A stretch of 64,000 bases of DNA, from assembly GCA_051294905.1 (NCBI GenBank), contig CM119371.1:10480001-10544000 (forward strand). The letters are read 5' to 3'. The translations under genes and the position numbers were made by a program. The notes under the pieces are model-generated. The model saw only the letters and a list, made by a program, of their open reading frames with translations, did not search any database and was not told the origin of the DNA. Of this stretch, positions 7,223 to 58,553 are shown piece by piece (the stretch's first letter is position 1; the number at the start of each line of letters is the position of its first letter). The stretch comes from Botryllus schlosseri (taxonomy: Eukaryota).

Positions 7223-7398
7223 GTACATAAGTTGACTTCCCCCGTGACCGATGCTGTTATGACGTATGCGTGAATAATCCTCGTTTGTATACTCGAATAT
7301 ACTCAAATCACTCCAGCGCCCGGTTTTGCCCAGTGCCAACTATTCCCACAGTCGTAATATTCTCTATATTCAAAGTTTATTATAATCCTATCGTAGCA

Positions 7399-29561: not shown

Positions 29562-31401
29562 ATAGCTAGTTCCAAATATTTTGTGCAAAATAACCCTAGC
29601 CAACGTGACGGGAGTATTTTAACGAAGTATGGCCATCTAACAATATGACCGATTAATTTGGGATGAATTATAATAAACCACTACATTCTTGGAAACAAGT
29701 TGCAAACATTGTCGGCGCATGTTTCGCGCGTAGCGCAACGGAAAGTTCCGAGATTTGACTGATTTTTCGTGAAAAAGACAGCAGCCGCAACTGGTGGTTC
29801 GGCATCCTTCTATCTGTTGATTACATCGCATTGTACATTGTGCGTGTCTTGTTCAGATGAAACTATAATCTGACGTTTATTAATATTGATTTCTCAGGTA
29901 TTTATGAAACTTCATGCTATTCGAAATCATGAGCGCCATCTGGCCATAGCTCGGAAAGTTGTGGAGAAAATCGACACAAAATAGAACTGCGCCAGAATCG
30001 AAAACAAGCATAGCTGATGTGTGATGCGGCGAGATTTTAATTATATAACATTTGAAATATTCTACGTTGTTAGGTTTTATATCCTAATTCTATTCGATAA
30101 TGTGATGAAGTATATTATGGAGTAAACGTTTAAACAACCACCGAGTTTCATGGCGAAATCAGATCTATCTTCTATCTATCTTAGAATCTATCTTAATCGC
30201 AAATCATTACGGCTTCTGGATAATAGATAGATGTTTACAACCAGTTTTCCTGGTCTCAATTTTGCCTTCGAGAACATGCATTCGATGCAGGTCAGATGCG
30301 CGATGTTTACTATTTCTCAATGATACGCGTGAAAACTGCAATCATACTAAACATGGTCATGATTCTATGTTCGCTATTAACTTAGATAAGTTGGAGCAAG
30401 CCAGAACAGATCTTGGCTGGACTTGGATATGAGACGTAGTCGTATTCGGGTTAGTATACACGGAAATCATATATGTATTACGAAATGGCAGCAATAAAAT
30501 GATAACATATTTTAATTGGGCTAGTGCTTGACCAGTTGATACAATATCGACTGCATGCCGTAGTAGGTACGGGCATTGATTAGAACCCATGTACCGCATA
30601 TATATATATTGAAATAAAATTGGATAAAACAACCATTGCTAACTAGAAGCACGCTTGTCTACTATAAAATATTACACTTGTTTAGCATCTTGTAAATATG
30701 ACCAAAGAAACAGAATAGCCATAAAAAGGCACAACAAAAAGGGAGTCGGAAACAAGACACCGATCGCGGAGCAGAGATTATTCATCAAGACACGCACGCA
30801 AGCTGTGCTAAATATTATGAACGCAGCTCCACTTACTGTTAGAATGCAGTACGATTTTAAGCGAATGGAACTGGTCAAGTGGGCAGTTGCAGTTATTCCC
30901 GATCCGCGGTGTTTCAGACAGATCCTCAACGCAGAACGGGTGGATGTTACCGTCAGATACGACACATAAACACCAGCGATGTTGTTATAATGGAAGCTAG
31001 CTACTGAACCAGTGAAGGCTAGGATCAAGAGTGAAGAAACGCAAATTATTGTCCGTCTCGGTTTAGAATATCGATCAAGAATTTGACCAACTATAGGTCC
31101 CGCAGCAGTTTCTGTTACGATTCCAATGATAAAAAGCAACCCCACAAATTGATCATTCAAATAGGGGAATTGTTTCAAAATCAAAGAAGATATAAGGGTG
31201 GCGCCGTACGCTCTGTCAGACATCGCGAATGCGTACAGTATAACAAATATCGCGTATGGGCGATAAGTGAATAGAAATGCCACATCTTTCAGCTCTCTTT
31301 TCATGCTGTAAGTCGGTGATGTCTGCACCAAGGGAGTTTTCTCGTTTAGTGCTTGATCATTAGGTAATTCGCCATGTTCGCAAACAGGCGGCTTGTTAGA
31401 C

Positions 31402-33356
31402 CAGAGTGTACTCAAAGGTGGTGTGGACACAGAAAGAAATTCTCTCGTTCACGCTTCGCTTGGGTTGTCAAGATTGTTATTTTCGATCCGTTTTCAGTAC
31501 TGACTCAGTGCAAAAGTCGGTATTGGTATATGTCGATTTTGACGATGTTTCATATTGATTTGGGTGACAAGTTTTCGTATGGTATATCTGGATGATGTAA
31601 TCTAATACTGTACCAAGTTTCAAGGTCTTCACTTTATGATTAGGGCAGTAATTGCGTTACCGAAGTCAAGTATGCTATTGTCGATCCGTCTGAAACAGTG
31701 ATTTGACGTAAACGTAGGTATCGGTATGTGTTGATTTTGACGATGTTTTATACCGAGATGGGTCCCAAGATTTGGTATGGTATATCTTGACGATATCATG
31801 ATATCATGGAACACTGTACCAAGTTTCAAGTTTCTCACTCATGATTAGGGTGGTAATTGCCTTATTCAAATCGACTAAGTATAAGTGTGCGCGGCCTACG
31901 CATTGCCGATTTTACGCAAAACTGGCTATTGATATGTTTTGATTTTGAAGGTATTCTATACGTAGTTGGCATACAAGATTTCGTATGATATATCTTTATA
32001 TTATATCAGCTAATAATGTACCAAGATTAAAGTCTTTCACTCATTGATTAGGGTAGTAATTGCCTTACCGAATTCGACAATGCCTAGATGAGAGTCAGAC
32101 TGAAACTAGGCTACCGCATAACAGATTTTACGCAAAAGTCGCTATTGATATGTGTTAATTTTGACGGTGTTCTATACGTATTTGGGAGACAAGATTTCGT
32201 ATGGTTTACCTTCATTATGTCAGCTAACGATGTACCAAGTTTCAAGGCTATCACGCATTAGGGTATAGGGTAGTAATTGTCTTATCCGAATCGACTATGT
32301 ATAAAGGTGTGCGCTAAACTAAAATTAGGCTACCACATAGCAGATTTTACGCAAAAGTCGCTATTGATGTGTGTTGATTTTGACAGTGTTCTATACGGAG
32401 TTGGGAAACAAGATTTCGCGTGGTATATCTTGATTATATCAGCTAACGTGTCAATTTTCAAGGCTGCATTTAACGATTAGGGAAGTAATTTCGTTAGCGA
32501 TGAGTACACCCCAATCCTTGAGTTACAACCCTAAAACTTGAATCAGTGTTGGATGACATCATGAAGATATACCATGCGGACAAATGGACACCGGCCAGTG
32601 CCGGCTTTTGCGTAAATTCTGTTATGCGGTAGGCTAGATTCGAGAGGCCAGACGCTGCAGCTGCAGGTCTCTACATAAACGGTCGACTTCGATAACGAAA
32701 TTACTGCCCTAATCATGAAGTGAGGACCTTGAAACTTGGTACAGTATTAGATCACATCATCCAAATATACCATACGAAAACTTGTCACCCATATCAATAC
32801 GAAACATCGTCAAAATCGACATATAATAATACCAACTTTTGCACTGAGTCAGTACTGAAAACGGATCGAAAATAACAATCTTGACTACCCAAGTGAAGCG
32901 TGAACGAGAGAATTTCTTTCTGTGTCCACACCAGAGATTAGCGGATTTGGAATTTCTATGTCCTAATCCAATCCAAATCCGAACCTTCAAATCCAAATCC
33001 TAATCCATAACTTTTTCATATTCAAGTCCATGTCCAATCCTAATCCGATTCCAACTGGAAATTCAGAAAAAATACTAATTTATGCAATGGAGGGATTCGA
33101 AAATTTTCTTTCACAACCAACAATTCAATTGATTCAAGATAACTTAGTAACCATAAGTACATTAATAACTGATCTGAATAAAGTTTGTCGCCATTCGCCA
33201 CACGACATTTCAATCTCCCAGAAAATAGGTAAATCCGATCCAAATCCTAATCCGTTCTGAAAAAAATGTCTAATCCAAATCCGACAAAATTTCACAAATC
33301 CTGTTTTTTCAAAACCTAATCCTAATCCATGCTCATCTCTGGTCCACACCACTCTG
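31402..33356. mobile_element. Foldback-type non-autonomous DNA transposon, 7-bp TSD (P-superfamily-like)
   Basis: Ends CAGAGTG...CACTCTG; TSD GTTAGAC (31395-31401, 33357-33363); ~250-bp inverted terminal regions; internal ~200-215-bp tandem units (TGTACCAAGTTTCAAG...GATTAGGG.AGTAATTG). Confidence 0.75.
32932..33341. mobile_element. CAGAGATGAGC/ATCCAAATCC-family hAT-type MITE (410 bp)
   Basis: TIR CAGAGATTAGC...GCTCATCTCTG; perfect 8-bp TSD GTCCACAC. Near-identical inverted copy at 51013-51439. Confidence 0.9.
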
Positions 33357-36300
33357 GTTAGACACAAAGCATATTACCAAAACGCAACAAAGTAACGACA
33401 TTACCGACAATGAGCCGAATGTCGAAGCGAATACAATTCTAAATCTGCGATCAATAATTTCGGAAGTTGTTGAGAATATCGATATTTGCTGAAGCTCATA
33501 ATGGCTATACCTCATCCCCATTGCTCTCGTAGCAACCAAGTTAGACATCAAAGATGCTAGCCGCCTTGTAGTCGATGACATTGCTGTCGCTTTTCCTCTC
33601 TCATGCAAATGAAACCAATTCACGGACACTAGCTGTGCTATCGCTATTATAACTCCGGCAGCGGAGCCGGATAGAAACATCCCAGCAACTAAGAGTCCAA
33701 ATATTCTTAACAAAACTCCCATTGTAACCAGTAGAGTGGCGAATCCATTTAAGACGCAAGCTAGCAACGTGATTTGCCGAAGGCTGATCCAACCACCGAT
33801 CACGCAAATCACCACAACGCTTGAAAGTCTACCGACGAGATTGGCGATTGCTTGCAAGTCAGTCATGGCTGGATTGATTCTGAAATATCTCGACGTGATA
33901 TCGTTGACAAATGAGAAGGATCCGAAACCGAAGACATCCAATACTGTGATCAAACACACTATCAATGAAATGACCCATCTTTTCCCCACGACTCGGTGTC
34001 TTTTCCCGTCCAACAGGAACGTCTTGTTGGTTTCGGAATCACGATCACTATCTTTAGACTTCATAGCAAACACTACACCTGATGTCACTCACTCGGTTCA
34101 GTTTCAAATAATTTTCCTCAACGGCCAATGAATGTAGCAAACGAAATGTCCTATACCAAGCTACGCCAACGATGGCTTGAGCAATACGCACGAGTGGGAT
34201 CATTCGTGCCGAGACGGAAGGAAACAGGAAGAGCCGACACTATGAATATTGATTGCTGTGAAATTGGCCGATGATAGCGTAGCGATGAGCGTATGTGCCA
34301 TCTACGCAGGTTGCCCGTGTTCAAGTCCTGCCTTCTCAAGTCCCTCTGGACTTCTCGTCCCCGTGACTGCAGTTCCAACGGCTACGAAAAAGGTCAGGAA
34401 AAAAGATCCGATGAAGAAAGAGAGAAAAGAGCATTAAATAATGTATAAATTCACATACCAAGATAGATTACAATCGAAATGACTGTAACATCGGGCACCA
34501 GTCCGATGTGGGTGCTAGATTAGGAAACTACAACTTGGTCGTTTCGGAATCCTCCTATATGTTCATTGCATCGCATTATGTCTTGTCCATCGCATTGAAC
34601 ATTGTGAGTAGTCCTATGTGTCTTTGGCAGATGAAAATATAATCCGGCAATGACACTGGTCAATTTCGAAAAAAATTGCGCTAAAAATTTAATGCTTGAC
34701 TTAGGCTAATTTAAGGTTGCCAAATCCGATTCAGTGCTCAGAATTTCTCTATCGGCACGTCAGATTGTTTTCTAGATGAATTTCTCTCATTTTCATAAAT
34801 AAATCAGATTTCGGCTTTCGTTAGTGACATAACAGTAAGCATACAACAGCAACAGATCGAATGTTGTTATTGAAATCATCTATCAAGAAATGTTAGTTGT
34901 TGTAGTACAGAATGAGTGAGTGTTCGGTGAACTTGAATCCAATGATTCTTCATCTTCGTTCAATCAGAAGCTCTTATCGACCCATAAAATCGCACCGGTC
35001 AACAAATTTCAGAAATAAAATTGCACCAAGAGTTTTAATGATTAGGCTAATTTTAGGTTGCTGAATCCGATTCTGCCGTCAGAATTTTTCTAGCACGTCA
35101 AATTTTTTCGGTATGTATTTTGTTATTTTCATAAATTAATCAAATTTCGGTTTTCGTTAGTGACATCACGGTCAGCGTACAACAGCAATAGATCAAATAT
35201 TGTTATTGAGATCATCTATAATTATGAAACCCGGGTTGTTGTAGAACAAAATAACTGAGTTTTCGCTGAACTTGAATCCAGTGGTTCTCTATCTTCTTTC
35301 GCTCAGGACCTCTTTTCGGCCCATAAATTCATATGAGGATACAAATATTTTTAGTCGGTAGCAGTTATCATCTTTATATGCTACTCTTCTTATAAAGATT
35401 TCGATTAGTAACTCCGTACCTAATTTAGTTCCATACGTTATCTATCTTTATACATCCGTTCTGCAGATTTAATCGGTCAATGCATGTTGTGACAGCACAC
35501 CATTCTTTCGTAAAACGTAAAAATTTGCAAACAATAAACATTGTGTTGTTGGTATATTATGTAGAAGAGAATTGTTCACTCGCGTACATGACGCTTTAAG
35601 CTTGTGCTGAAACAATAAAAGAAACAGGCTGTCTGCTTTTCGAAAAAAAAAGTGCTTTTCATGATAACTTGAAAGAATTTATAAGCATTAATCTCCACCT
35701 GTACTTATCATGCTAATTCTTTTAACATTTTATTGGAATCGGGTAAAGCTGTTACTGAACTGTTTTTCTTTTGGTGTATTGCCATGATATAAAGGGCTTC
35801 TTTTGCATTGTCTATTATAGATAACCAGATGAATAGAGACTGCTTACTAACAGCTCAAACGAAACCTGATATGCGTGATACTTCACAATAGAAATAACTA
35901 TGCTTCGGTTCTAGGACAGTCGATCGCTCTCGACATAGGACATTCTATGGCCGACACTCAATAACACGTGTTCTATTCTGTAATAGAGCCAGAGATTAGC
36001 ATTGGTTAGCATCGAGGCTTTTTGTTAGTGTTTTGCATGATTAAACGTCAGATCTTAATACAAAAGGGGGGTTCCTGATTTGGGGGTTCCTGATTTGCCG
36101 TAACATTTTACTATGAGCTAGAGTTGGTTGAAGTGATCAGCGTTGCTACTCAAGTAACATAAGTAACGCCTATCATTTCTACTCAATTACAAGTAGAATT
36201 AGTCATTTCTAAGACATGTTAAAACTACTTCAAGTAGAAGATGAAATGGAAGGTCTGATAATAACTGAAAGTCAGTAAATATATAAGTATATATTGGTCT

Positions 36301-39300
36301 GGGGAGGGTGGTCGTATACCTTCAAAACGTAGTGGAGGTGGCTGCATACGAAATTGCAAGATGCATCGCTGCATATAACGCAAAATGACTTTAATGATAC
36401 CACTCATTGGTAGAACCTTCGAAAACAATATATTCAGTTACCGTTATTCAGAGGCTATTTTACACGTTTCGTATGACAATTTACCTCATGATAGTGGTGC
36501 AATATTATCCTTGAATTACTTTCTACTTTACAAAAATCAAATTGCAAAAGTAATTAGTTCATTCAGAATACTGTTCAGGTAGAAGTTGAAGTAGTTGTAA
36601 AACATTAACACTTCAGTAAGTACTGCAAGTAGCCAAAATCTACTTGAGTACCTTAAAAAAGTAGAAATATTCAACATAAATAATATCCCAAACACGCGAC
36701 GTGATGGAACAAATATGACGTCAGATTCGTATTCAGCGACCCCAAATTAGGTATAATTCACCCAAAGAAGTCCTGGCGCAAGTAGTTAGTATGATCGGTC
36801 GCGAACTAGCGTTGTCTCTTATGGGTGCACCCGACCGGTGCCGCGAAAACTCGTCCTGAACCGGTGACCCTTTCAGACCCCCCTTCCACCCGACCGGTGC
36901 CTTATGAGTATAGGGATCTCTCGACCGGTGCCTCGAAACTCGTCTTGAACCGGTGACCCTTTTCGGTATAGGGATCACTCAACCGGTGCTAGTATAGCCA
37001 TCTCTCGACCGGTAACCCTTTTCGGTATAGGGATCACTCGACCGGTGCCGCGAAAACTTGTCTAGAACGGGTGACCCTTTTCGGTATATGCATCTCTCGA
37101 CCGGTGTTGAATATGTATCAAGTAAATAGTCATGTGACTGAATCTTTGTTAATGTGTATATCGTGAAAACTCGTGGTCGTGACTCGCCTTTTTTACTATA
37201 GGTGGTGGCGGTGATTCGCCTGCCGTGTATTCTTACGGGATCTGTGGTGACTCGCCATGTGTTTTTATGGGTGCGGTCGCATGCGGCTATTGTGTCTTAT
37301 GGGTGCGGCCGTGAATCGCCCTTTCGGTATAGGGATCGCTCACACGGTTCTACATGAAGACATCGTAGTTTAGTCGTGACAAATGACCGATCGTGTGACC
37401 AATTTGAAGTAATCCCAACGTTACGGCGAGTGCGACAATGATATATCGTTATTCTTATGGGTGCGGCGGTGATTCGTACTTTCGGGTATAGGCTGCGGGC
37501 GGAATGTCGTACTTTCAATAAAAAAGGCGTGAAAATAGTTTGCAAAATCTAGGAATTACTCGCATGGTAATGTTTGGGTAATTAGATTACCACAGAGCCG
37601 GCGTAGACGGCGATTCGAATATCAACAATAACAACGGTCACAAATTAACACTTCAAATAGGTGTGAAATAGTTTGCAAAACCACGCGATCGCTGACAAGA
37701 TATTGTCTCGGACATAACCATCTTTAGCGACTTGGTGTTACAGGCATATCGATCACTCACGCGGTGAAATTTTCGTAAGCAGTTTGGCACAGAACTTGAT
37801 TTCACTCGTAAGATTTAATAAGTAACGAATAACAGACCGCCAGTGTCGGTAACTTGAATAGCGACAAATTGTCACTTATTTCCGCTCTAACCCTAATCCT
37901 TTGTGAAGTGAACGCTTATTCAAAAAGGTGTGAAATAATTTTAAAATCCAACGACCACTCACCGGATAATGCTTCAGACATAGCGATCGCTCATGATTTG
38001 GTGTTACAGACATACCGATCGTTCACAAGGTAATATTTCCGCAATAAGTTTGTCACAGAGCCGTCGCAGACGGTGATTCGAAAACCAACAATTTGACACT
38101 TTCTGGAAGTCGCTATATGTTTTGGCACTTCGGAACAGTGAGTGACTTTAGTTGTATGATAAGAATCATGAAAATATTCAAGCAATGTATCAATTTGTCA
38201 ACTTGAAATGTAACTTACTACACAACTCAAGTTGATTCTTATCTGAATGTGTTAATTTGGCACAACTCTAATTCTTTTGAGAAATCCTAATAACGCGATC
38301 TGTTGAATCGAACGTAACCTGAATATTACTGACGCCGACTTTCAGCCACATCAAATTATTTGCACATTCCGAGTCGCTGTTTCACGCATATAGAATCAAT
38401 ACCAACTAGCTCAATGAGAATCAGGAATCACAAGTATACACACACAATAATTATATTTAATACTGAGAAATCAAACGCTTAACAAAAACACGCAACTAAT
38501 CATTTACCAACTCTAGCATTACCAAAAAAAATTCAGGCATTGTTAATTGAAAATCCTTGAATCCTTATTATCAAAAAATGTTATAGTGCGGTGTCGGAGT
38601 CCATTCGCGGGGTGTACTAAAGGTAAATCCAAATAATCCAGAATGAAATATTTGGACTTTGACATTGCGTGAATTGAAATATGTTGGACAAACATGACTA
38701 CCAATTTTCACCCAGTCACATTTCGAGATTATACGCACATTGATTTGAAACAAGTAATGAAACATTACAACTCTATTCGCGACCTGTCTTTACGTTTGTC
38801 AAAGAGAATTTCAGTAATTACTATCGCGATATTTTAATGTGTTACTACTCACAATAGAATCAATCAATGAAATATCGCCAATTGTTGTAAACATTTCCAA
38901 CTTGACAACCGCTTGCACATAACACGATCGAGTTGCAATGCGATGAGTTGAATCGGAATATTTCAACCTACTTTGTCATATCGCGATTTGAAGTAGGATT
39001 GCCAGACAGGCTGGGTAAACTTTAACTCCACTGCGTTTCAGATTAATTTATTCACACGATCATCATCTCGCTGTCTTCACACTTACACAATCGCGTGCTG
39101 TTACCACTCGCAACTTCGGTACGATATTTCAACTTGTCACAATAACTGATTATTCACATGTTGATTTGAAACAAAAGAAGCCTTGAACAAGTTATCTGGG
39201 TATTTTTTTGTCACAATTGAGTTAATGGAAATAGTATTACACCTCGAAATTTTAACATCTCACCATACTCAAAAGAGTCAATCATAAAGACCTTGTCAAG

Positions 39301-40929
39301 TAAATCCGTTTGTAACTTGGCCATCCAACTAGACAGTACCCGTACAGAAAGAAGACAAGATTACGCGAGTACATACAATCGCTACAATCTAAAATCCATA
39401 GCAAGTTCGGTTGTAGTCATAGTCCGCCAACTCGTATTTTTTGTTCAACTGTAAAAGTCGTTACTATTCTGTAAGATAAAGTAATTACTACTCGGTATAT
39501 TTTATAAACCAAAGTAAGTACTACTCGGTGTGAGGTTTCAGATTAACATATTACATTTGAGTATACGAGATTTGAATGTCTGACCAACGTAGTTGAGAAT
39601 TCTTACAATCGAACGCAGGTGTTATATTGAAAATTTTCACGATGTAAACATATGAATTGACACATTGATTTTGACATATGAGATTTTGTAATAGTCGATC
39701 ATGACTTGATTATTAAATTATGACATTATTAGACCTGCGTTGTGTTGAAGGTTATTACGATACCAACAAACTTTTCAGAAACATTGTTATTAACATATCG
39801 ATTTGTGAAACTAGATTAACATGTCTGAAATGTTTTGATTGGTAAGATTAAGCCGTGTTCGTAAAAACCACACAGCGTATTGTGGATATCAAGAAATATT
39901 TTACAAATGTAATTGTCTCCAGTAACCAAGACTAAAGATGAAACAACAATTTCCTTTGTTGAACAATAACCGGTACAATACTTTATCATCGTAATCTGCG
40001 GTGAGAATTGAAACACTTTCGCACATTACCCGGTGTCAAGATATCACACTGGGTGAATTGACATACCGCCGCTTGATTAATACCTAATCCGTTCGCACCA
40101 TTTCACCTACTTTGATCATTACAAAAGTAAATTGGAATATGTTTGCTAGATGCATTCAATTCAGTTAGAAATGTCTGGTGCACAACAATCGTAATATCAA
40201 GGAAGTACTTGCTACACTGTAATTCACTTAACATGTTTTGCATTGTTGTTCATTTGTAGTATTGATTGAAATTGTTTTTGAACCCCCAAATATTAATTCC
40301 CGACATGAAACCAAGCCACTGAAAGTCGTTACCATCACAACGAAACAATTTGTACGATGTTTGCCAAAATGTATCCTATAGTTAGGTGTACTAGAATTAT
40401 TTGTCTAACACATACACCGACAATGCAATCGAAAATTTTTCCGTTGTCATTCGCTAAAGTAAATGTCATCACAATACTCTGTCACTGAAAGACGTTACTT
40501 GTATGTGATTGAATCCCTAACAATAAACCCACTAAACCGAACTCCAAATAAATTTGACTCACTCGACGGATATGAAACAGCGTCGCTTAATCGGTCTATA
40601 TCGTTTTTCTAAAGGTAAATCATATCCAATAGAAAACAATTTTCACAAGCTTGGTAATGAAACCGAAGTCTTTATTCAATATTTTGTTTGTGTCAAATAC
40701 TTTGCAATAAACACACTGGAGTGGTTGAGCTTTACATCATCAGACTGTCATCTGTAAATCAAGCTTACATCCGATTTGTAACTGTATTGTTTACCTAACC
40801 GAGTTGTATGCACAGTTTGATATTTTTGTCATTCAGGGAGTGCAAATCCTTTTCACACTCGTAATAGTATACCAACAGCTACCGGCGACAACGTTTAACA
40901 ATACCAACAACACTAAACATACGATACCT

Positions 40930-41580
40930 ACCCAAGTAAAATTACCATTTCCACCTGGAGGTCAACCGTTACCTGAGTAAAAATACCATTGTCCTTTGGA
41001 GATTTATCGTTTACTCAGAGTAACAATACATTTCACTTGGGGGTCTATCGTTTCCCTGGGTAACAAACCTTTTTCACTTGGAAATATATTTTTTCTCTGG
41101 GTAACAAACCTTTTTCACTTGGAAATATATTTTTTTCCCTGATCAACAAACCATTTTCACTTGGAAATATATTTTTTACCACAGCAACAAACCATTTTCA
41201 CTTGGAAATATATTTTTTCCCTGAGCAACAAACCATTTTCACTTGGCGGTCCGTCGTTTACCTGAGTAAAAACATCACTTTCCTTTGGAGATCTATCGTT
41301 TATCCGGAGTAACAATACATTTTCACTTTGGGTTCTATCCTTTCCTAGAGTAACAAAACCCTTGTCGTTTGCAAATCTATTTTCTCCTACAACAACAAAC
41401 CATTTTCACTTGGAAAAATACTTTTACCTAGAGTAACTAATCATTTTCTTTCGGAAATATATTTTCTCTTGGGTAACAAACCCTTTTCGTTTGGAAAACT
41501 ATCATTTACCTGAGTACCAATACTGTTTTCACTTGGAAATCTTTTTTTTTCCTGGGTAACAATAGCATTTTCGTTTTGAA
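40930..41580. repeat. ~40-bp minisatellite in the left arm (mirror at ~44040-44690)
   Basis: Recurring unit approximately AACAAACCATTTTCACTTGGAAATATATTTTTTCCCTGAG, roughly 15 diverged copies. Confidence 0.85.
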
Positions 41581-41686
41581 AACTGACAACCACACCGGAA
41601 AATTTGATATTTTTGTATATTGTTACAACGGGCAGTGACAAAATATACACCAACAACGACTCCGATACATTTGTCTAATCAAATAT

Positions 41687-41935
41687 TCACTGGCTCTGAT
41701 GCATCCCATCAAAATCATTGGTTACTCGCATGCAATAACAATGTGCTGTTGTACATCGACATGTATGTTTTCGGAATTGGCGAATAAAGGGGTTTTCGAT
41801 ATGACCGTGATGTCCGGGTTCGTGCTTTGGATTTTCCAGAGTCAAAATGTCTGAATAAAACACCTCCTCGACTTTGGTAACTGGTTGGTACACGGATAAT
41901 GATGTTCGGAAAACGGATGAAATTATGTTCCCCAT
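41687..41935 (-). CDS. Hypothetical 82-aa protein, left-arm copy (MGNxxS start, Cys/His-rich C-terminus)
   Basis: ATG-initiated; differs from the right-arm copy at one residue (L/S). Confidence 0.4.
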   Translation of the reverse strand: MGNIISSVFRTSLSVYQPVTKVEEVFYSDILTLENPKHEPGHHGHIENPFIRQFRKHTCRCTTAHCYCMRVTNDFDGMHQSQ

Positions 41936-42974
41936 CGCGCGAACAACTACGGGTTACTTGCGGGTTTCCTCAGGTCTGTTTACTATATTGTGTCTTTACT
42001 GGGCAATACATATCGCTCCAGTCAGCTGAAACCGGATACCTAATATGAGAAAGTGTGTGGGCCGGATATTCACTCATGAACCAACGACCAATATTCAAGT
42101 AAACATGTTACAGACCGTGTTTTGTCTCCATGAAAAATACCAATGCATACACCATCACATCAAGTACGTCACGATTGTTCATACATACCAAGTATTCGCG
42201 TAAACGAGGTGTACATACAATGTGTCGGTGTACAAACATCATGGAAAACAAATTCATGTTCTCAAGTCTCATCATGCGACGACTCTGTACATTCAATGTG
42301 GGCAGAGATGACTTGGAGACAGGCAAGCAGCCATATTTGGACGTAACACGGTCTTAGTATGAACCGACCTCCACCCAACTTGTGAAAAATGAATCTCACA
42401 TGAGTACAGCCCTTTCACGGGTTCACACCTTGATTTTGCAAGATTGTTCAGATTCTCAGGTAGACTTACATCGTGATCCAGAGCTCAACATATAGTAAAA
42501 TCGGGTTGCCTAGTTCAATTACTCACCCAATCCTCGCGTATTCTTGGTCATAACCTGTGAACTTTTTTGCTGAGACCACAGTGATTCACCTGGTTTAATG
42601 TATTTGGCGATCATCATCGTTATCAATCTTTCACGCGATGAGTATGTCGGATGTCGCTACTCCCACATAACGACTTCAGCTAAACATCGTGAGCAGTGAC
42701 TCCGGATTGAAATCGTAAACGGAGATTATGTGTATGTGTGAATCTCGAGTTCAATCACGATTTGATAATGTAATCCAAGGTGTGTCTCTGCGGGTTGAAG
42801 ACTGATTTCGTGTTAACCTCTCCGCAAGAGGGTGCTGTCTCGTAATTCTACATGTCGTTATAAAACACGGTTGGAAACTTTTGTTCTAGTTGATCCAGCT
42901 ACGTATTGAAACGGTTCACCCACGCAGACCACTGAGAAAACGTTGTCGTTACCTGACTATATCCACGAGTAAAT

Positions 42975-43250
42975 ATGGGACTACGCGTAACGTTCCATAG
43001 ATTCCTCTGGCCCCACACCGTGGTTTTACGACACAGACAAGATGCAGCGGTGGAAATATTGAAAATGAAAAACGATACCTTGGTGACATTTGATTTGGAT
43101 TTTACACCTGATGAACCATACACTCGATTGGTACATTGGGATGACAACTCTATCGTCGAGGTCGAGGGAAAAGAAATGTACAGATTTGTTGGTGTTGTGG
43201 CTATTCAGCGAAAATCAGGGTATATGGTTGTGTATGGTTCGCATATTTGA
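42975..43250 (+). CDS. Hypothetical 91-aa protein in the unique spacer of the palindrome
   Basis: ATG in a TAAATATG context with TATAAAA ~115 bp upstream; globular-protein-like composition; no family recognised. Confidence 0.45.
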   Translation: MGLRVTFHRFLWPHTVVLRHRQDAAVEILKMKNDTLVTFDLDFTPDEPYTRLVHWDDNSIVEVEGKEMYRFVGVVAIQRKSGYMVVYGSHI

Positions 43251-43266
43251 CTGAGAATATATCGGT

Positions 43267-43506
43267 ATGCATAATGCACTGTCCATTGTATCATGTCGTG
43301 TGTCATCTCTGCCCACATTGAATGTACAGAGTCGTCGCATGATGAGACTTGAGAACATGAATTTGTTTTCCATGATGTTTGTACACCGACACATTGTATG
43401 TACACCTCGTTTACGCGAATACTTGGTATGTATGAACAATCGTGACGTACTTGATGTGATGGTGTATGCATTGGTATTTTTCATGGAGACAAAACACGGT
43501 CTGTAA
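43267..43506 (+). CDS. Hypothetical 79-aa ORF crossing the spacer/right-arm boundary
   Basis: ATG 16 bp after the previous stop. The left-arm mirror lacks this ATG and N-terminus. Confidence 0.3.
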   Translation: MHNALSIVSCRVSSLPTLNVQSRRMMRLENMNLFSMMFVHRHIVCTPRLREYLVCMNNRDVLDVMVYALVFFMETKHGL

Positions 43507-43678
43507 CATGTTTACTTGAATATTGGTCGTTGGTTCATGAGTGAATATACGGCCCACACACTTTCTCATATTAGGTATCCGGTTTCAGCTGACTGGAGCG
43601 ATATGTATTGCCCGGTAAAGACACAATATAGTAAACAGACCTGAGGAAACCCGCAAGTAACCCGGAGTTGTTCGCGCG

Positions 43679-43927
43679 ATGGGGAACATAATTTCATCCG
43701 TTTTCCGAACATCATTATCCGTGTACCAACCAGTTACCAAAGTCGAGGAGGTGTTTTATTCAGACATTTCGACTCTGGAAAATCCAAAGCACGAACCCGG
43801 ACATCACGGTCATATCGAAAACCCCTTTATTCGCCAATTCCGAAAACATACATGTCGATGTACAACAGCACATTGTTATTGCATGCGAGTAACCAATGAT
43901 TTTGATGGGATGCATCAGAGCCAGTGA
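43679..43927 (+). CDS. Hypothetical 82-aa protein, right-arm copy
   Basis: MGNIISS... with HGH and HTCRCTTAHCYC clusters; co-oriented with the two upstream small ORFs. Confidence 0.4.
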   Translation: MGNIISSVFRTSLSVYQPVTKVEEVFYSDISTLENPKHEPGHHGHIENPFIRQFRKHTCRCTTAHCYCMRVTNDFDGMHQSQ

Positions 43928-46268
43928 ATATTTGATTAGACAAATGTATCGGAGTCGTTGTTGGTGTATATTTTGTCACTGCCCGTTGTAACGATATACA
44001 AAAATATCAAATTGTCCGGTGTGGTTGTCAGTTTTCAAAACGAAAATGATATTGTTACCTAGGAAAAAAAAAAAGATTTCCAAGTGAAAACAGTATTGAT
44101 ACTCAGGTAAATGATAGTTTTCCAAACGAAAAGGGTTTGTTACCCAAGAGAAAATATATTTCCAAAAGAAAATCATTAGTTACTCTAGGTAAAAGTATTT
44201 TTCCAAGTGAAAATGGTTTGTTGTTGTAGGAGAAAATAGATTTGCAAACGACAAGAGTTTTGTTACTCTAGGAAAGGATAGAACCCAAAGTGAAAATGTA
44301 TTGTTACTCTGGATAAACGATAGATCTCCAAAGGAAAGTGATGTTTTTACTCAGGTAAACGACGGACCGCCAAGTGAAAATGGTTTGTTGCTCAGGGAAA
44401 AAATATATTTCCAAGTGAAAATGGTTTGTTGCTGAGGTAAAAAATATATTTCCAAGTGAAAATGGTTTGTTGATCAGGGAAAAAAATATATTTCCAAGTG
44501 AAAAAGGTTTGTTACCCAGAGAAAAAATATATTTCCAAGTGAAAAAGGTTTGTTACCCAGGGAAACGATAGACCCCCAAGTGAAATGTATTGTTACTCTG
44601 AGTAAACAATAAATCTCCAAAGGACAATGGTATTTTTACTCAGGTAACGGTTGACCTCCAGGTGGAAATGGTAATTTTACTTGGGTAGGTATCGTATGTT
44701 TAGTGTTGTTGGTATTGTTAAACGTTGTCGCCGGTAGCTGTTGGTATACTATTACGAGTGTGAAAAGGATTTGCACTCCCTGAATGACAAAAATATCAAA
44801 CTGTGCATACAACTCGGTTAGGTAAACAATACAGTTACAAATCAGATGTAAGCTTGATTTACAGATGACAGTCTGATGATGTAAAGCTCAACCACTCCAG
44901 TGTGTTTATTGCAAAGTATTTGACACAAACAAAATATTGAATAAAGACTTCGGTTTCATTACCAAGCTTGTGAAAATTGTTTTCTATTGGATATGATCTA
45001 CCTTTAGAAAAACGATATAGACCGATTAAGCGACGCTGTTTCATATCCGTCGAGTGAGTCAAATTTATTTGGAGTTCGGTTTAGTGGGTTTATTGTTAGG
45101 GATTCAATCACATACAAGTAACGTCTTTTAGTGACAGAGTATTGTGATGACATTTACTTTAGCGAATGACAACGGAAAAATTTTCGATTGCATTGTCGGT
45201 GTATGTGTTAGACAAATAATTCTAGTACACCTAACTATAGGATACATTTTGGCAAACATCGTACAAATTGTTTCAGTGGCTTGGTTTCATGTCGGGAATT
45301 ATTATTTGGGGGTTCAAAAACAATTTCAATCAATACTACAAATGAACAACAATGCAAAACATGTTAAGTGAATTACAGTGTAGCAAGTACTTCCTTGATA
45401 TTACGATTGTTGTGCACCAGACATTTCTAACTGAATTGAATGCATCTAGCAAACATATTCCAATTTACTTTTGTAATGATCAAAGTAGGTGAAATGGTGC
45501 GAACGGATTAGGTATTAATCAAGCGGCGGTATGTCAATTCACCCAGTGTGATATCTTGACACCGGGTAATGTGCGAAAGTGTTTCAATTCTCACCGCAGA
45601 TTACGATGATAAAGTATTGTACCGGTTATTGTTCAACAAAGGAAATTGTTGTTTCATCTTTAGTCTTGGTTACTGGAGACAATTACATTTGTAAAATATT
45701 TCTTGATATCCACAATACGCTGTGTGGTTTTTACGAACACGGCTTAATCTTACCAATCAAAACATTTCAGACATGTTAATCTAGTTTCACAAATCGATAT
45801 GTTAATAACAATGTTTCTGAAAAGTTTGTTGGTATCGTAATAACCTTCAACACAACGCAGGTCTAATAATGTCATAATTTAATAATCAAGTCATGATCGA
45901 CTATTACAAAATCTCATATGTCAAAATCAATGTGTCAATTCATATGTTTACATCGTGAAAATTTTCAATATAACACCTGCGTTCGATTGTAAGAATTCTC
46001 AACTACGTTGGTCAGACATTCAAATCTCGTATACTCAAATGTAATATGTTAATCTGAAACCTCACACCGAGTAGTACTTACTTTGGTTTATAAAATATAC
46101 CGAGTAGTAATTACTTTATCTTACAGAATAGTAACGACTTTTACAGTTGAACAAAAAATACGAGTTGGCGGACTATGACTACAACCGAACTTGCTATGGA
46201 TTTTAGATTGTAGCGATTGTATGTACTCGCGTAATCTTGTCTTCTTTCTGTACGGGTACTGTCTAGTT

Positions 46269-47464
46269 CAGAGGTCTCAAACACGCGGCCCGCGGGCCGC
46301 ATGTGGCCCGCCAGAGCATTTCGTGCGGCCCGCGAAGACATTTTAGATTTTTAATAATTTGAAAATATTTTAGTGTCACATATATCTTTTCAGGTTATAA
46401 AGTCGAAATCCCCTCTTAAATTGCCTCAAAAGCCTGAACTATTCATCGAACTTCGCTATCACATCAATTGCAAACGCTACCATGCAGTGGAAGATTCAAT
46501 ATTTCGCCACATTTCCAATTCATGATGACGAAACCTGACCCTTAGACGATTCGTGACTAAAATTTGTGAGTTGGACTTGCACGCGACCTTTCTTAGAAAT
46601 ACTCAGACTCGCAAAATGAAAATGACTCGAGTGGACTCGGAGTGACTCGGTATGTCGTGAATTTGTTAGAACCTTGAACGCAACAAACTAATCGCGTATC
46701 GGGAGAATAGCAATGGATCAGAAGGTCGCAGCTTTGTATTTCGCTAACTAAGCAAGTAGTTATAGCAACCGTTGGAAATCTGTCAGTTACATCTTTGGTC
46801 GCTAAACCATGTTACTAAGGCCACGTACAGGTACCGAGTACCGCAGTGGTACGCCCCAAGGATGTAACAACAATGGGCCGTTCGGCGTTCCGACATTTCA
46901 ATCACTAGGACACATTCAATAATATATTTATATTATATTTATATTTGTTTCTGCTCCTATATTTGAAGATATTTGGCCAAGAGATTAATAGCCTACTTAG
47001 CAGAAGTATACCCGAAACCTGGATTGGAATTACAATGCTAAACCTGACAATGTTTTGATATCAGATCAGTCTCTATTATCAATCTGTTAAATTCAAAATA
47101 TTCATAGTACCTGCAAAATTATAACCCGATAACTTTCATGATGGCATCATACATATGTCCGCCCATATGATGTCAATATGTTATAATAAATATATATCAA
47201 GTACAACAACAACTCTATTCAAGTAGTTATAAATGTGATGATTCTTTTCTTGCCAGGCCTAAATTTACACAAGAGTATATCACATTTTGACGATGTGTGT
47301 TTACTGATAGTCTGCTGGATCGGCTCACTTTCAATAGGACAATTAATTCCCGCCAAATAAGGCCTATTCGGAAAGACATAGAATACCCCTATAAATGCTG
47401 CGGCCCGCGGCGTCGTCAAAACGTGAAAACTGGCCCGCAAGCACATTTGAGTTTGAGACCTCTG
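46269..47464. mobile_element. hAT (Charlie-like) MITE present only in the right arm
   Basis: Perfect TIR CAGAGGTCTCAAAC...GTTTGAGACCTCTG; perfect 8-bp TSD GTCTAGTT. The left arm shows the single-copy empty site at ~39327-39334. Confidence 0.93.
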
Positions 47465-50400
47465 GTCTAGTTGGATGGCCAAGTTACAAACGGATTTACT
47501 TGACAAGGTCTTTATGATTGACTCTTTTGAGTATGGTGAGATGTTAAAATTTCGAGGTGTAATACTATTTCCATTAACTCAATTGTGACAAAAAAATACC
47601 CAGATAACTTGTTCAAGGCTTCTTTTGTTTCAAATCAACATGTGAATAATCAGTTATTGTGACAAGTTGAATATCGTACCGAAGTTGCGAGTGGTAACAG
47701 CACGCGATTGTGTAAGTGTGAAGACAGCGAGATGATGATCGTGTGAATAAATTAATCTGAAACGCAGTGGAGTTAAAGTTTACCCAGCCTGTCTGGCAAT
47801 CCTACTTCAAATCGCGATATGACAAAGTAGGTTGAAATATTCCGATTCAACTCATCGCATTGCAACTCGATCGTGTTATGTGCAAGCGGTTGTCAAGTTG
47901 GAAATGTTTACAACAATTGGCGATATTTCATTGATTGATTCTATTGTGAGTAGTAACACATTAAAATATCGCGATAGTAATTACTGAAATTCTCTTTGAC
48001 AAACGTAAAGACAGGTCGCGAATAGAGTTGTAATGTTTCATTACTTGTTTCAAATCAATGTGCGTATAATCTCGAAATGTGACTGGGTGAAAATTGGTAG
48101 TCATGTTTGTCCAACATATTTCAATTCACGCAATGTCAAAGTCCAAATATTTCATTCTGGATTATTTGGATTTACCTTTAGTACACCCCGCGAATGGACT
48201 CCGACACCGCACTATAACATTTTTTGATAATAAGGATTCAAGGATTTTCAATTAACAATGCCTGAATTTTTTTTTGGTAATGCTACAGTTGGTAAATGAT
48301 TAGTTGCGTGTTTTTGTTAAGCGTTTGATTTCTCAGTATTAAATATAATTATTGTGTGTGTATACTTGTGATTCCTGATTCTCATTGAGCTAGTTGGTAT
48401 TGATTCTATATGCGTGAAACAGCGACTCGGAATGTGCGAATAATTTGATGTGGCTGAAAGTCGGCGTCAGTAATATTCAGGTTACGTTCGATTCAACAGA
48501 TCGCGTTATTAGGATTTCTCAAAAGAATTAGAGTTGTGCCAAATTAACACATTCAGATAAGAATCAACTTGAGTTGTGTAGTAAGTTACATTTCAAGTTG
48601 ACAAATTGATACATTGCTTGAATATTTTCATGATTCTTATCATACAACTAAAGTCACTCACTGTTCCGAAGTGCCAAAACATATAGCGACTTCCAGAAAG
48701 TGTCAAATTGTTGGTTTTCGAATCACCGTCTGCGACGGCTCTGTCACAAACTTATTGCGGAAATATTACCTTGTGAACGATCGGTATGTCTGTAACACCA
48801 AATCATGAGCGATCGCTATGTCTGAAGCATTATCCGGTGAGTGGTCGTTGGATTTTAAAATTATTTCACACCTTTTTGAATAAGCGTTCACTTCACAAAG
48901 GATTAGGGTTAGAGCGGAAATAAGTGACAATTTGTCGCTATTCAAGTTACCGACACTGGCGGTCTGTTATTCGTTACTTATTAAATCTTACGAGTGAAAT
49001 CAAGTTCTGTGCCAAACTGCTTACGAAAATTTCACCGCGTGAGTGATCGATATGCCTGTAACACCAAGTCGCTAAAGATGGTTATGTCCGAGACATTATC
49101 TTGTCAGCGATCGCGTGGTTTTGCAAACTATTTCACACCTATTTGAAGTGTTAATTTGTGACCGTTGTTATTGTTGATATTCGAATCGCCGTCTACGCCG
49201 GCTCTGTGGTAATCTAATTACCCAAACATTACCATGCGAGTAATTCCTAGATTTTGCAAACTATTTTCACGCCTTTTTTATTGAAAGTACGACATTCCGC
49301 CCGCAGCCTATACCCGAAAGTACGAATCACCGCCGCACCCATAAGAATAACGATATATCATTGTCGCACTCGCCGTAAACGTTGGGATTACTTCAAATTG
49401 GTCACACGATCGGTCATTTGTCACGACTAAACTACGATGTCTTCATGTAGAACCGTGTGAGCGATCCCTATACCGAAAGGGCGATTCACGGCCGCACCCA
49501 TAAGACACAATAGCCGCATGCGACCGCACCCATAAGACGCAATAGCCGCTCGCCACCCCCGCCATAAGACGCAATAGCCGCATGCGACCGCACCCATAAA
49601 AACACATGGCGAGTCACCACAGATCCCGTAAGAATACACGGCAGGCGAATCACCGCCACCACCTATAGTAAAAAAGGCGAGTCACGACCACGAGTTTTCA
49701 CGATATACACATTAACAAAGATTCATTCACATGACTATTTACTTGATACATATTCAACACCGGTCGAGAGATGCATATACCGAAAAGGGTCACCGGTTCA
49801 AGACGAGTTTTCGCGGCACCGGTCGAGTGATCCCTATACCGAAAAGGGTCACCGGTTCAAGACGAGTTTCGAGGCACCGGTCGAGAGATCCCTATACTCA
49901 TAAGGCACCGGTCGGGTGGAAGGGGGGTCTGAAAGGGTCACCGGTTCAGGACGAGTTTTCGCGGCACCGGTCGGGTGCACCCATAAGAGACAACGCTAGT
50001 TCGCGACCGATCATACTAACTACTGGCGCAAAAATCGTGTAGACCAGTTTGATTTAATTCCTTTTCCGAATTTTCGATTAATATTATTGATAATGCAACT
50101 AATGGTAATAATTGACAGCATGAGAAACATAAGACTCACTGCTATCCGCTATGATTCATTGATTCACCTAAAATCAATATGGTCATGAATCATCAATTGT
50201 GGTGAATATTTTTATGCAGCTTTCGAGGTATACAATTCACTACTATATTCATATTGAACTAAACCGGAATATATTTTGCTGACATTATAGTCACGGGTAA
50301 TCGTCAGCAACTAGTAAAGAATTGGAAAGAACATTGTATATCTACAATCGTATCACAAAATATGACGTCACCAGCATGAAATGAAATCTCGAATAAGAGA

Positions 50401-50490
50401 GCGTTGAATATACTATTTTAAGAGGCTACATGAAATCCTTTGTAGACAAAGCTTGAGCAAAATGAATTCGTGTACCATCTTGGCTTGGAT

Positions 50491-55362: not shown

Positions 55363-57890
55363 TCAGACTTGTTTAGCATCTTGTAAATATGTCCAAATAA
55401 ACAGAATAGCCATAAGAAAGCACAACAAAAAGGGAATCGGAAACAAGACACAGATCGCGGAGCCGAAATTTTCCATCAAGACATGCACGCAAGCTGTGCT
55501 CAATAATATGACGACAGCTCCACCTGCCGTCAGAATGCTATACGATTTTAAGCGAATGGAACTGCACAGGTTCGCAGTTATTCCCGATCCGCGGTGTTTC
55601 AGACAAATCATCAACGCAGAACGTGTGAATGATAACATTAGATACCACACAGAAACACTAGCGATGTTGTTACAGTGGAAGCAAGCTACTGAACCAGTGA
55701 AAGCTAGGATGAGCAATGAAGAAACGCAAATTATTGTCAGTCTCGGTTTGTAAAATTTATCAAGAATTTGACCAACCATAGGCCTTGCAGCAGTTGCGGT
55801 TACGATTCCAATGATAAACAGCAACCCCACAAGCTGATCATTTAAATATGAAAATTCTTTCAATATCAAAGAAGATATAAGCGTGACGCCGTATGCTTTG
55901 TGGATCATCGTGAAAGCGCACACGATAAAAAATATCGCGTATGGGCGATAGGAGAATAGAAATGCGACGTCTTTCATCTCTATATTCACGCCGTGAGACG
56001 GCGATGTCTGCAGCTGCACTAAAGGCGTATTTTCGTTTCGTGCTGGATCATTATTTATCTCGCTGTGCTCGCAAACAGGCGGCTTGTCAGACACGAAGCA
56101 TATTACTAAAACGCAACAAAATAAGGACATTATCGACAATGAACCGAATGTCGAAGCCAAAACTATCTTAAATCTGTTATTAATATTTTCAGAAGTAGTA
56201 GAGAATATCGATGTTTGCTCAAGCTGTTGATGGCTATAGGGCAGGGGTCTCCAACACGCGGCCCGCGAGGTCCTATTTTGCGGCCCGCGACCTGATTTGA
56301 ACAAATTTCAGAAAAACGCTTAGTAAATCATTTTTAAACGCTGAAAATTATTTCAATTGAAACATAATGTTGTTGTTGTTTGAAGTAAGCCATTACACTG
56401 TGCCCAATATCACTATTCCTTACTAGTTGATACGGCTTCGACATGGTAATATCATTCCATGGATGAAGAATTTGCTGGTACGAATGGGCATAATATTGCC
56501 TTGACGTGCAATGGCCCACCACTGCCAAGACCGAGACGCGTGAAAAACGACTTCGGGCTCTCCAAAAGACCATGCTTTACGAGGAGATAGTTGTTTAGCA
56601 AGTAGGCCTACCGTGTCTGGCTAATCCAAATATTGATTCTTTAATCCAGGGGTGGCCAATCTGCGGTAGTAGAAGGGAAATTATGCGGCTGTCGACACTT
56701 TTGATAACAACCCTACGTTTTCTAAGATACCCCCTGCATCAGCTCTATCGGTGAATCTGATCACATTGGCCGGGAAAGGATAAATATTTTATAGTAATAT
56801 GTGAAACCATACGAATATTGACGAAATTCACTAATAAACATGAAAAATTTTTCGCGCTTCGCGCGACTACAGACCGGGGTGTCCTGTGGCTATTACAACA
56901 TAACTACTAACGATTTCGGTCCGCATAGTAAGCCGATGTGCATAAATTGATTAGTTCGGAGTGTACCGACAATGGACATGGACAGTTTACCGTGGGCATT
57001 TGGCCCCAGCTAGTTTATCACGACTATAACAACCGGTATGCGGCCGCAGGCTACATGAGTAATCGAAAAGCGGCCATGAAGAGCAAACATGTGGGCCACC
57101 CCTGTTTTAGCGGCTACAGAGTGTCAGGTATCGTGTACAGCTCATAGTTCAAAATATAACGAAATTGGAAATTGATGATCATGATACTTTTGTTGTATTT
57201 GTCTTTGTTCAATAAAATATTATTTCTTTTGTGGTGACTATAACCGTCGCCCATGTTAGAGAGCACAGCATTGTAATAACGAAGAGTTATCAGATGTGGT
57301 TGCTGAACTGCTTTGCCTACTTTTATATCGATATTGATGTCCTGCGGCCCGCGGCATCTCGGCATTCGGAAAAGTGGCCCGCGACCCATTTTGAGTTGGC
57401 GACCCCTGCTATAGGGATTCCCCATTGCTCTCGTAGCAACCAAGTTGGACATCAAAGAGGCTAACCGCCTTGTAGCCGATGACATTGCTGTCGCTTTTCC
57501 TCTTGCATGCAAAGGAAACCAATTCACGGACACTAGCTGTGCTATCGGTATTATAATTCCGGCGGCGTTACCGGATAGAAACATCCCAGTAACTAAGACT
57601 CCAAATATTCTTGACAGAACTCCAATTGTTATCAATAGAGTGGCGCATACGTTTAAGACGCAGGCTAGCAAAGTGATTTGCCGAAGGCTGATCCAACCAC
57701 CGATCACGCAAATGACAACAACGCTAGTCAGTCTACCGACGAGATTGGCGATTACTTGTAAGTCGGTCATGGCTGGATCGATTCCGAAATACATCGAAGT
57801 GATATCGTTGACAAAGGAGAATGATCCGAAACTGGAGACATCCAATACGGTGATGAAACACACTATCGATAAAATGCTCCAGCTGTTCCA
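55363..57890 (-). pseudogene. MFS transporter (SLC49-like) copy 3, split by a hAT MITE and lacking the paralogous start region
   Basis: ORF halves 57114-57917 and 55363-56304 join in frame at PYS (the TSD). Motif SVNWFPLHARGKATAM. About 0.4 kb containing the ATG of copies 1 and 2 is missing. Confidence 0.82.
56242..57408. mobile_element. hAT (Charlie-like) MITE with a probable older nested element (~56647-57104)
   Basis: TIR CAGGGGTCTCCAAC...GTTGGCGACCCCTG; perfect 8-bp TSD CTATAGGG. Confidence 0.88.
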
Positions 57891-58553
57891 CGAACGAAGA
57901 ACGAGAGAAAAGTGCAAAAAATTATGTCTGCTGTAATGACCGAGGAATACAGTTCAACATCGCCAGACTGTGACATTGGGCACTATGCCGAGGTGGATGC
58001 ATAGATTAAGAGACCAGAACTTATGGTCGTTTCGTTATCCTCCTCGCTGTTCATTGCATTGCATTGTGTCTCGTATATCGCATTGATCACTGTGTATGTG
58101 TCTGCGCAGATGGAAATATAATCCGGCGATGATCGATTATAATGCAACTAATGTTAATAATTGTATGCATGGAAAGCAAAAAACTCACTGCTATTCGCTA
58201 TGATTGATTGATTGATTTACCTTAAATCATTATGTCCAGGAATCATCAATTAAGGTAAGTATTTTTAAACAGCTATCGTAGTATCAGTCGGATGAATCTC
58301 GAAGCATTGCTAGTTGTTTTCCTTGATTTTCATTATGGCTTAGATCATGAGCATTATCTTGGGTAATTGAATGACGGAACCAGCGGTTATTATCCGCTGT
58401 GCAGCGACTGCTCAGGAGTGCAGCGAAAAAAATGAGGTAAAGCTGTTTGCCGTCGACATAAAACAATTATGAAAGGGGTACCACCTATATATATGATGTG
58501 ATATCAAATTCAAATTGGAAGTGTGAAAACAATTTTATAAACAGCCTTGTCCT

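Follow-up and report, generated by a model that had tools for sequence, protein, structure and literature searches.

Polintons or Mavericks (polintoviruses) are virus-like transposons that duplicate 6 bp of target sequence, end in 5'-AG...CT-3' within terminal inverted repeats, and carry genes for a protein-primed polymerase (pPolB), an integrase, an ATPase, a protease and capsid proteins; their copying and movement have been modelled but, to our knowledge, never observed. The non-autonomous Polintons of repeat libraries are said to possess Polinton ends and duplications and to be moved in trans, as Kapitonov and Jurka reportedly set out in 2006. Here we describe an element at positions 36781-50024 of a 64,000-nucleotide stretch of the Botryllus schlosseri genome (the window, part of a 495-Mb eukaryotic assembly; C-numbers below denote contigs of the same genome) that has such ends and is a palindrome over nearly its whole length. 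We consider it likely, as the best overall explanation, that this element is one copy of a high-copy, non-autonomous satellite family of the Polinton/Maverick virus-like transposons in the same genome.

Other described systems resemble the element in part. Drosophila Foldback and Galileo-type transposons also have very long inverted repeats with tandem arrays and, in most copies, little or no coding sequence; their target duplications are 9 bp in FB and 7 bp in Galileo, whereas the element duplicates 6 bp and has Polinton ends. Defective adenovirus genomes with long inverted repeats are said to have been described by Daniell in 1976. Snap-back (copy-back) defective viral genomes, which a passage of PMC13506859 defines as near-complete palindromes, resemble the element in having a small unique centre and a pair of identical ends, each competent for replication; unlike them, the element is a stable, integrating, multi-copy lineage with a putative gene of its own, not a transient by-product. 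Virus satellites (virophages, transpovirons, P4, PICIs) depend on a helper for replication or integration, as by analogy the element would, and retain a small gene set of their own, but the element has no capsid, replication or integration gene. From autonomous Polintons, with which it shares the 6-bp duplication, the 5'-AG...CT-3' ends and ~45 terminal bases, it departs both in lacking pPolB, integrase, ATPase, protease and capsid genes and in the extent of its inverted repeats (~92% of the element versus 0.6-0.8 kb of 16 kb). In the literature on palindromic, foldback, non-autonomous or satellite-like Polintons we found no near-complete palindrome, no co-evolving arms and no conserved gene peculiar to a satellite; that search did not extend to the 2006 Polinton paper or to entries in repeat libraries, and precedent there is possible. 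A non-autonomous Polinton with similarly long inverted repeats has reportedly been described in zebrafish. A satellite-on-transposon of this form is undescribed in the literature searched.

Architecture of the element and its insertion site

The element is a giant palindrome composed of two reverse-complementary arms with a 989-bp loop between them. Its principal features are as follows (positions are those of the window; a strand is given where one was assigned):

36775..36780: left copy of the 6-bp target-site duplication GGCGCA (the empty-site paralogue has a single GGCACA)
36781..42312: left arm of the palindrome, 5,532 bp
36781..36825, plus strand: terminal ~45 bases (AGTAGT..GATCGGTCGCGA..CTCTTATGGG), common to gene-bearing Polintons of the same genome, aligned by eye to the ends of the C4 and C7 copies and to 20 other termini
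36818..36840, plus strand: 23-base subterminal motif, the marker of this terminus type in a genome-wide motif search
42313..43301: unique loop (spacer), 989 bp
43302..50024: right arm of the palindrome, 6,723 bp including a nested element
50025..50030: right copy of the target-site duplication GGCGCA, from the empty-site comparison

One arm was aligned with the reverse complement of the other after excision of the nested 1,196-bp insertion (46269-47464) together with a single copy of its 8-bp duplication: their identity is 99.50% (27 mismatches in 5,451 ungapped columns). There are also 7 gap events, the longest being 59-bp and 64-bp repeat-unit differences near the ends and one 21-bp gap. The palindrome proper, without the nested element, measures 12,040 bp, and the excess of 1,191 bp in the right arm over the left is due mainly to that 1,196-bp insertion. 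The element starts AGTAGTTAG and ends CTAACTACT (AGTAGT...ACTACT).

An initial annotation, made from the window sequence alone, had described near-identical arms around a 989-bp spacer, terminal inverted repeats making up over 90% of the length, and a perfect 6-bp direct repeat, GGCGCA, at the flanks. The measurements above agree with the first two of these points, and a paralogous empty site shows the third to be a target-site duplication: at C6:7455429-7455538, the one paralogue examined, a single GGCACA is followed directly by the sequence of the window's right flank. The element is a discrete insertion that generated a 6-bp duplication, and its host is another dispersed repeat, the 39 non-self matches of the left flank being 85-89% identical (40 matches, own locus included, scored of 1,229 first-look candidates). 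The right flank, which holds only ~24 bases of host repeat including the 6-bp duplication, gave no result as an empty-site probe. Around the element the host repeat occupies window positions ~34654-36780 and 50025-50048. A neighbouring sequence resembling major-facilitator superfamily (MFS) transporters has paralogues in the window that lack the whole 15.4-kb block.

The 23-base motif has 122 matches genome-wide (60 forward, 62 reverse), against 0 for the reversed motif used as a control. All of the 100 matches listed are exact, with 0 mismatches, and they form 43 inverted pairs and 14 singletons; the pairs have a median span of 13.67 kb, 21 of the 43 spanning 13.0-14.0 kb. Twenty of the 21 termini listed begin AGTAGT, and the remaining match begins 6 bases in. 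Other copies with different 6-bp duplications, which the initial annotation had proposed to look for, do exist: 6-bp direct repeats flank 7 of 7 further inverted terminus pairs (4 perfect, 3 with one mismatch), and their sequences differ between pairs.

A palindrome of this size might also be an assembly artefact, for example of fold-back chimeric long reads. Two observations would suit that explanation, the first of which we count against our own. No public short-read contig bridges the arm-loop junctions at the window locus, the contigs being only 70-250 bases long (4 runs from 4 studies under the same organism label; their word depth inside the element is very high). Seawater and other metagenome runs contain small shares, from which we draw no conclusion. 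In addition, at a related locus (G000:C12:7175600-7200300) two palindromic units are joined over a 100-N gap, where the assembly has probably failed to separate copies that are nested or adjacent. On the other hand, the arm-loop-arm design recurs at 37 other loci, there are 43 inverted terminus pairs, every copy examined is flanked by a 6-bp duplication of its own, the empty site is precise, and the loop holds a conserved putative gene. Because the same architecture occurs at many loci with different flanks and duplications, assembly error is a very unlikely source of the palindrome; an artefact deserves hardly any credence.

Gene-bearing Polintons with the same ends

Two gene-bearing Polintons were examined, one on C4 (16.5 kb, with 782-bp terminal inverted repeats) and the other on C7 (15.9 kb, with 619-bp terminal inverted repeats). 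Both are flanked by perfect 6-bp duplications (2 of 2), and in both the first ~45 bases are the same as those of the window element, with divergence beyond. Their products are a 1,300-residue pPolB (PF03175 at 30.9 bits, for a cut-off of 25.8), a 359-residue integrase with an rve domain (2e-16) and a chromodomain, a 216-residue AAA/A32-like ATPase, and a 432-residue capsid-like protein whose nearest Atlas clusters (0.98) have a double-jelly-roll-like domain in 14-30% of their members.

Another gene-bearing copy, on C8 (G000:C8:22224900-22241000), is chimeric. It is 16.1 kb long and has many open reading frames (ORFs) on one strand; its inverted ends are only ~730 bp long and are 96.5% identical to positions 36-522 of the window element. 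This copy is defective: where ~2.3 kb with the integrase and ATPase genes would lie, it has an array of 41-bp repeats akin to those in the window arms, and its polymerase gene is spread over four frames. Its 522-codon polymerase frame has 312 database relatives (best 1.8e-119), many of them with PF03175. The right 4 kb of the C8 copy match neither the C4 copy nor the satellite. The corresponding arrays of the window element are:

40972..41572: 41-bp tandem repeat array of ~14.5 units in the left arm, with a related array in the chimeric C8 copy
44066..44644: 41-bp tandem repeat array in the right arm, mirror of 40972-41572

Polinton genes are abundant in the genome as a whole: the 522-codon C8 frame has at least 83 matches, ~50 of them with open frames of at least 1,200 codons, and there are 113 integrase matches. 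(A first search of the genome with the PF03175 family gave nothing although pPolB is abundant; that search was insensitive and is no evidence of absence.) At C5:1701453-1720303 and C11:11688076-11717468, two of the larger pairs of the exact 23-base motif enclose integrase ORFs and pPolB matches; therefore, gene-bearing elements with this terminus type exist. Further integrase- or pPolB-bearing loci adjoin two unpaired termini, on C9 and C10. The C5 copy is rearranged at its one end read.

In the window element, by comparison, there is no long ORF for pPolB, rve integrase, capsid, packaging ATPase or protease; tblastn and tblastx with the proteins of one gene-bearing copy gave nothing, and no Rfam family matched positions 36500-50300. 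Having no pPolB or integrase genes, the element is non-autonomous. As it has the cis features of Polintons and lacks those of gene content, we file it, by its sequence, as a non-autonomous Polinton derivative and not as a Polinton proper. The initial annotation had proposed a defective, satellite-like Polinton and suggested a search for an autonomous element with the same ends: the proposal is strengthened by the ~45 terminal bases shared with 16-kb Polintons and by the 6-bp duplications, and the search yielded the pPolB- and integrase-bearing copies on C5 and C11, with the exact motif at both ends. Taken together, these comparisons make it very likely that the element is a Polinton satellite mobilised in trans.

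A different identity would be that of a Foldback-like or other DNA transposon with long inverted repeats, served by a transposase unrelated to Polintons and with ends that merely resemble theirs. Long inverted repeats with internal tandem repeats, and the absence of helper genes inside, would be in keeping with such an origin. Its difficulty is that the element combines a 6-bp duplication with AG...CT ends and with a first ~45 bases that align with gene-bearing Polintons, and that gene-bearing copies have the identical 23-base motif at both ends. Moreover, the one transposase ORF found in a related copy is read as a nested insertion: the centre of that copy (G000:C16:20295800-20314400) holds a 624-codon hAT transposase-like ORF (Dimer_Tnp_hAT, zf-C2H2_12). 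We regard a Foldback-like identity as very improbable.

The palindrome is a family trait and its arms evolve in concert

By count of the loop ORF that we name p91 (see below), the family has at least 150 copies. Helper polymerase loci number at least 83; the two figures, each a lower bound, are not directly comparable. The arms measure 6.3-6.8 kb and are 98.8-99.9% identical in copies on C6, C3 and C8, and the loop together with 300 bp of arm on each side has a full-length match at 37 other loci (90-95%). The 989-bp loop alone matches in full length at ~40 loci; we rejected the idea that the loop is a separate transposon, since the loop and its flanking arms match together at the 37 loci.

Another observation concerns the relationship between arms. 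In a 700-bp stretch beside the loop, compared in six copies, each arm has as its closest relative the opposite arm of the same copy (6 of 6), and this sisterhood has bootstrap support wherever the arms are not identical: arm identity is 99.3-100% within a copy versus 75.5-97.4% between copies. The arm-loop junction lies at homologous positions in the copies compared. From the homologous junctions and the sisterhood of arms within copies it follows that the palindrome is older than the divergence of the copies and that its arms evolve in concert. One relative, on C15 (G000:C15:5800686-5810100; 9.4 kb), is palindromic straight through its centre (99.2%), with neither loop nor p91 ORF; either a palindrome formed here independently or the centre was lost symmetrically.

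The near-identity of the arms could be maintained in either of two ways: by renewal whenever the element propagates, as developed below, or by chromosomal gene conversion between closely spaced inverted arms, the identity of the element as a Polinton satellite being the same in both. Large genomic palindromes elsewhere, for example on sex chromosomes, stay alike through arm-to-arm conversion. The pattern itself, with arms 99.3-100% alike in each copy, copies differing by up to 25% and a shared junction, is predicted by both models. Two observations speak against conversion, the first of them weakly. Copies whose target-site duplication has decayed tend to have the more divergent arms: arm identity is 97.6, 98.5 and 99.25% where the duplication has one mismatch, and 98.75, 99.5, 99.9 and 100% where it is perfect. 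This is a weak hint that arms are identical at insertion and drift apart afterwards. The second observation is that an insertion in the window element is present in just one of the arms and still has its 8-bp duplication intact, the arms around it being 99.5% alike:

46261-46268 and 47465-47472: 8-bp duplication GTCTAGTT of the nested hAT-like element, perfect copies
46269..47464: nested non-autonomous hAT-like element, 1,196 bp, in the right arm, ends CAGAGGTCTCAAAC..., outside the palindrome design

The inserted sequence belongs to a dispersed, very abundant family, with at least 41 matches that are all, save one partial match, 87-93% identical (best 40 of 2,521 first-look candidates scored). 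With respect to the step that keeps the arms identical, chromosomal conversion is the main rival to renewal during propagation; we rate it a serious possibility, if well below an even one.

A conserved open reading frame in the loop

The unique loop contains one frame that stands out by its conservation:

42975..43250, plus strand: p91 ORF, 91 codons plus stop, ending 51 bp before the right arm

This frame (codons at 42975-43247, ATG to TGA) is the best-conserved part of the loop and coincides with its conservation peak. In comparison with the copy on C12, which is the most divergent that can be aligned, 14 of 23 differences fall at third codon positions and the ratio of nonsynonymous to synonymous substitution rates (dN/dS) is 0.18; over four comparisons with C12 this ratio is 0.18-0.26. 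In the C6 subfamily the loop DNA is otherwise hardly alignable, yet the 91-codon ORF is retained at 64% identity, with the same length, start and stop (dN/dS 0.32 at dS 0.79). A word-index search of a large protein database produced three relatives, all of 91 residues, at 98, 76 and 70% identity and from contigs of 965-1,075 bases. Of 150 genomic copies scored, 148 have no stop; these are the best 150 of 1,197 candidates, and the intact share is biased upward.

We conclude from these comparisons that p91 is a predicted orphan protein under purifying selection, and that it is probably a real gene. The statement in the initial annotation that no ORF exceeds ~100 amino acids was roughly right, since stop-to-stop frames within the element run to 91-119 codons, but it hides this conserved frame, with which the element is probably not devoid of genes.

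It might instead be proposed that the loop is conserved for a role at the DNA level (turn-around, origin or packaging signal), and that the frame is incidental. The lack of a domain, relative or confident fold would fit that proposal. Pfam has no p91 domain (best E 0.12), and four further points weigh against our view that p91 is a gene: its best Atlas score is 0.77, with nothing usable; among 1.84 billion representatives a profile search recovered no cluster but its own; two AlphaFold models (mean pLDDT 33.6 and 36.9) give no confident fold; and the high intact share is subject to the bias already described. A non-coding loop would nevertheless have to account for the enrichment of third-position differences relative to C12, for dN/dS values of 0.18-0.32, and for a length, start and stop that are unchanged where, as in a divergent subfamily and other data sets, protein identity is 64-76%. 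An incidental frame is, in our judgement, unlikely.

Three further candidates bearing on p91 came to nothing. No relatives were found in viral contigs. Two metagenome-contig loci that matched p91 were rejected as pattern-driven chance matches. Finally, the notion that p91 is a relic of the Polinton ATPase, which arose from tblastn matches (E 0.03-0.8 and 0.059), was rejected by hhalign (probability 1.65%).

ACCGGT arrays and copy length

The ends of the element also carry clustered copies of a hexamer, ACCGGT:

36834..37105: 9 ACCGGT sites within 59-bp subterminal repeats, left end; site positions kept in the window copy (WIN), C6b and C15
49700-49971: mirrored array of 8 ACCGGT sites, right end; mirror of the left array

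There are 8-9 such sites in the first 320 bases of each end, at positions conserved across three subfamilies (WIN, C6b and C15), where base composition would lead us to expect ~2 in the whole element. None occur in the terminal repeats of the two helper-type copies examined, the Polintons on C4 and C7.

Satellite copies have lengths of 12-14.6 kb, versus 15.9-16.5 kb for gene-bearing copies. The range may fit a packaging limit; alternatively, it is simply inherited. PMC12090768 has nothing on lower packaging size limits. At one locus of 27.1 kb in all (G000:C11:11825918-11852930) the terminus motifs are ordered + + - -, which suggests one 13.5-kb satellite nested in another.

A model for the origin and propagation of the satellite

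We hypothesize that the element is propagated by the machinery of a gene-bearing Polinton: the helper's rve integrase would recognise the shared ends and insert the element, and the helper's protein-primed polymerase would copy it from its terminal origins. The palindrome may have begun as a snap-back product, formed when a strand-displacing polymerase, after a template switch, turned back on the strand that it had just made and copied it to the same end; such a product would possess two identical, replication-competent ends. In each subsequent round of propagation the element would for a time be a folded-back single strand, one arm of which would correct the other or serve as its template, and the arms would drift slowly apart after insertion. 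This fold-back form is said to match the racket-shaped single strand in the Polinton model of 2006, and a fold-back strand that lets arms correct each other is as proposed for adenovirus terminal repeats. As to the plausibility of the template switch, polymerase of the phi29 type makes it readily in vitro: PMC1855051 states that >85% of the chimeras produced by phi29 polymerase in multiple displacement amplification are inverted sequences. The p91 product and the satellite-specific ACCGGT arrays would be the family's own propagation equipment.

By analogy with snap-back genomes, an origin of this type with renewal of the arms at each propagation seems to us to have close to an even chance of being correct, though not quite that. 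Bearing in mind the rival of chromosomal conversion, we draw attention to several points that tell against the model. The likeness between the element and the gene-bearing copy compared is limited to parts of the terminal repeat (the first ~0.8 kb) and one 150-bp stretch just inside; the remaining ~4 kb of arm have no match to that Polinton copy at either the DNA or the protein level. The arm is therefore only partly supported as a copy of a parental genome end, which is a further difference from snap-back defective viral genomes. The trend of arm divergence with age comes from n=7 copies (one-sided p ~0.06 by rank count). In addition, ACCGGT-type ends are also present on chimeric gene-bearing copies without p91, and the partnership of p91 with ACCGGT is a guess. 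That p91 might be an adaptor, with the ACCGGT arrays as its putative binding sites, that diverts the helper machinery is a doubtful proposition.

The most elaborate version of the model is that of a hyperparasite of an animal Polinton/Maverick virus: a snap-back palindromic satellite, ~75-90% of the helper genome in size so as to fit the helper capsid, that would divert the helper machinery with its own p91 and putative ACCGGT binding arrays and would have its arms re-templated in a fold-back stage in every round. As a whole this leans towards the unlikely, but were it true, the co-evolving arms would be the first genomic footprint of extrachromosomal, protein-primed strand-displacement replication of Polintons. 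More generally, the conserved orphan ORF and the satellite-specific arrays at the ends suggest a layered parasitism in an animal genome, with a satellite living on a virus-like transposon, comparable to virophages or phage satellites. Palindromes that are identical within copies and drift between them offer a natural read-out of the intermediate, be it a fold-back single strand or chromosomal conversion. At least 150 copies of ~13 kb also amount to ~2 Mb or more of near-perfect long palindromes, structures that are prone to breakage, hairpin RNA formation and assembly trouble.

Sequence surrounding the element

A further high-copy repeat lies just past the right flank (window 50229-50424): ~190 bases, 86-89% identical at 39 scored loci. 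Host genes of the window occur in repeated sets, with two class-I methyltransferase-like frames (7231-8256 and 26133-26690) of 85.5% DNA identity and several major-facilitator transporter-like frames (18602-19705, 30672-34088 and 55363-57953), an arrangement that suggests local segmental duplication. The G+C content is 0.50 at window positions 60001-64000, versus ~0.40 elsewhere in the window.

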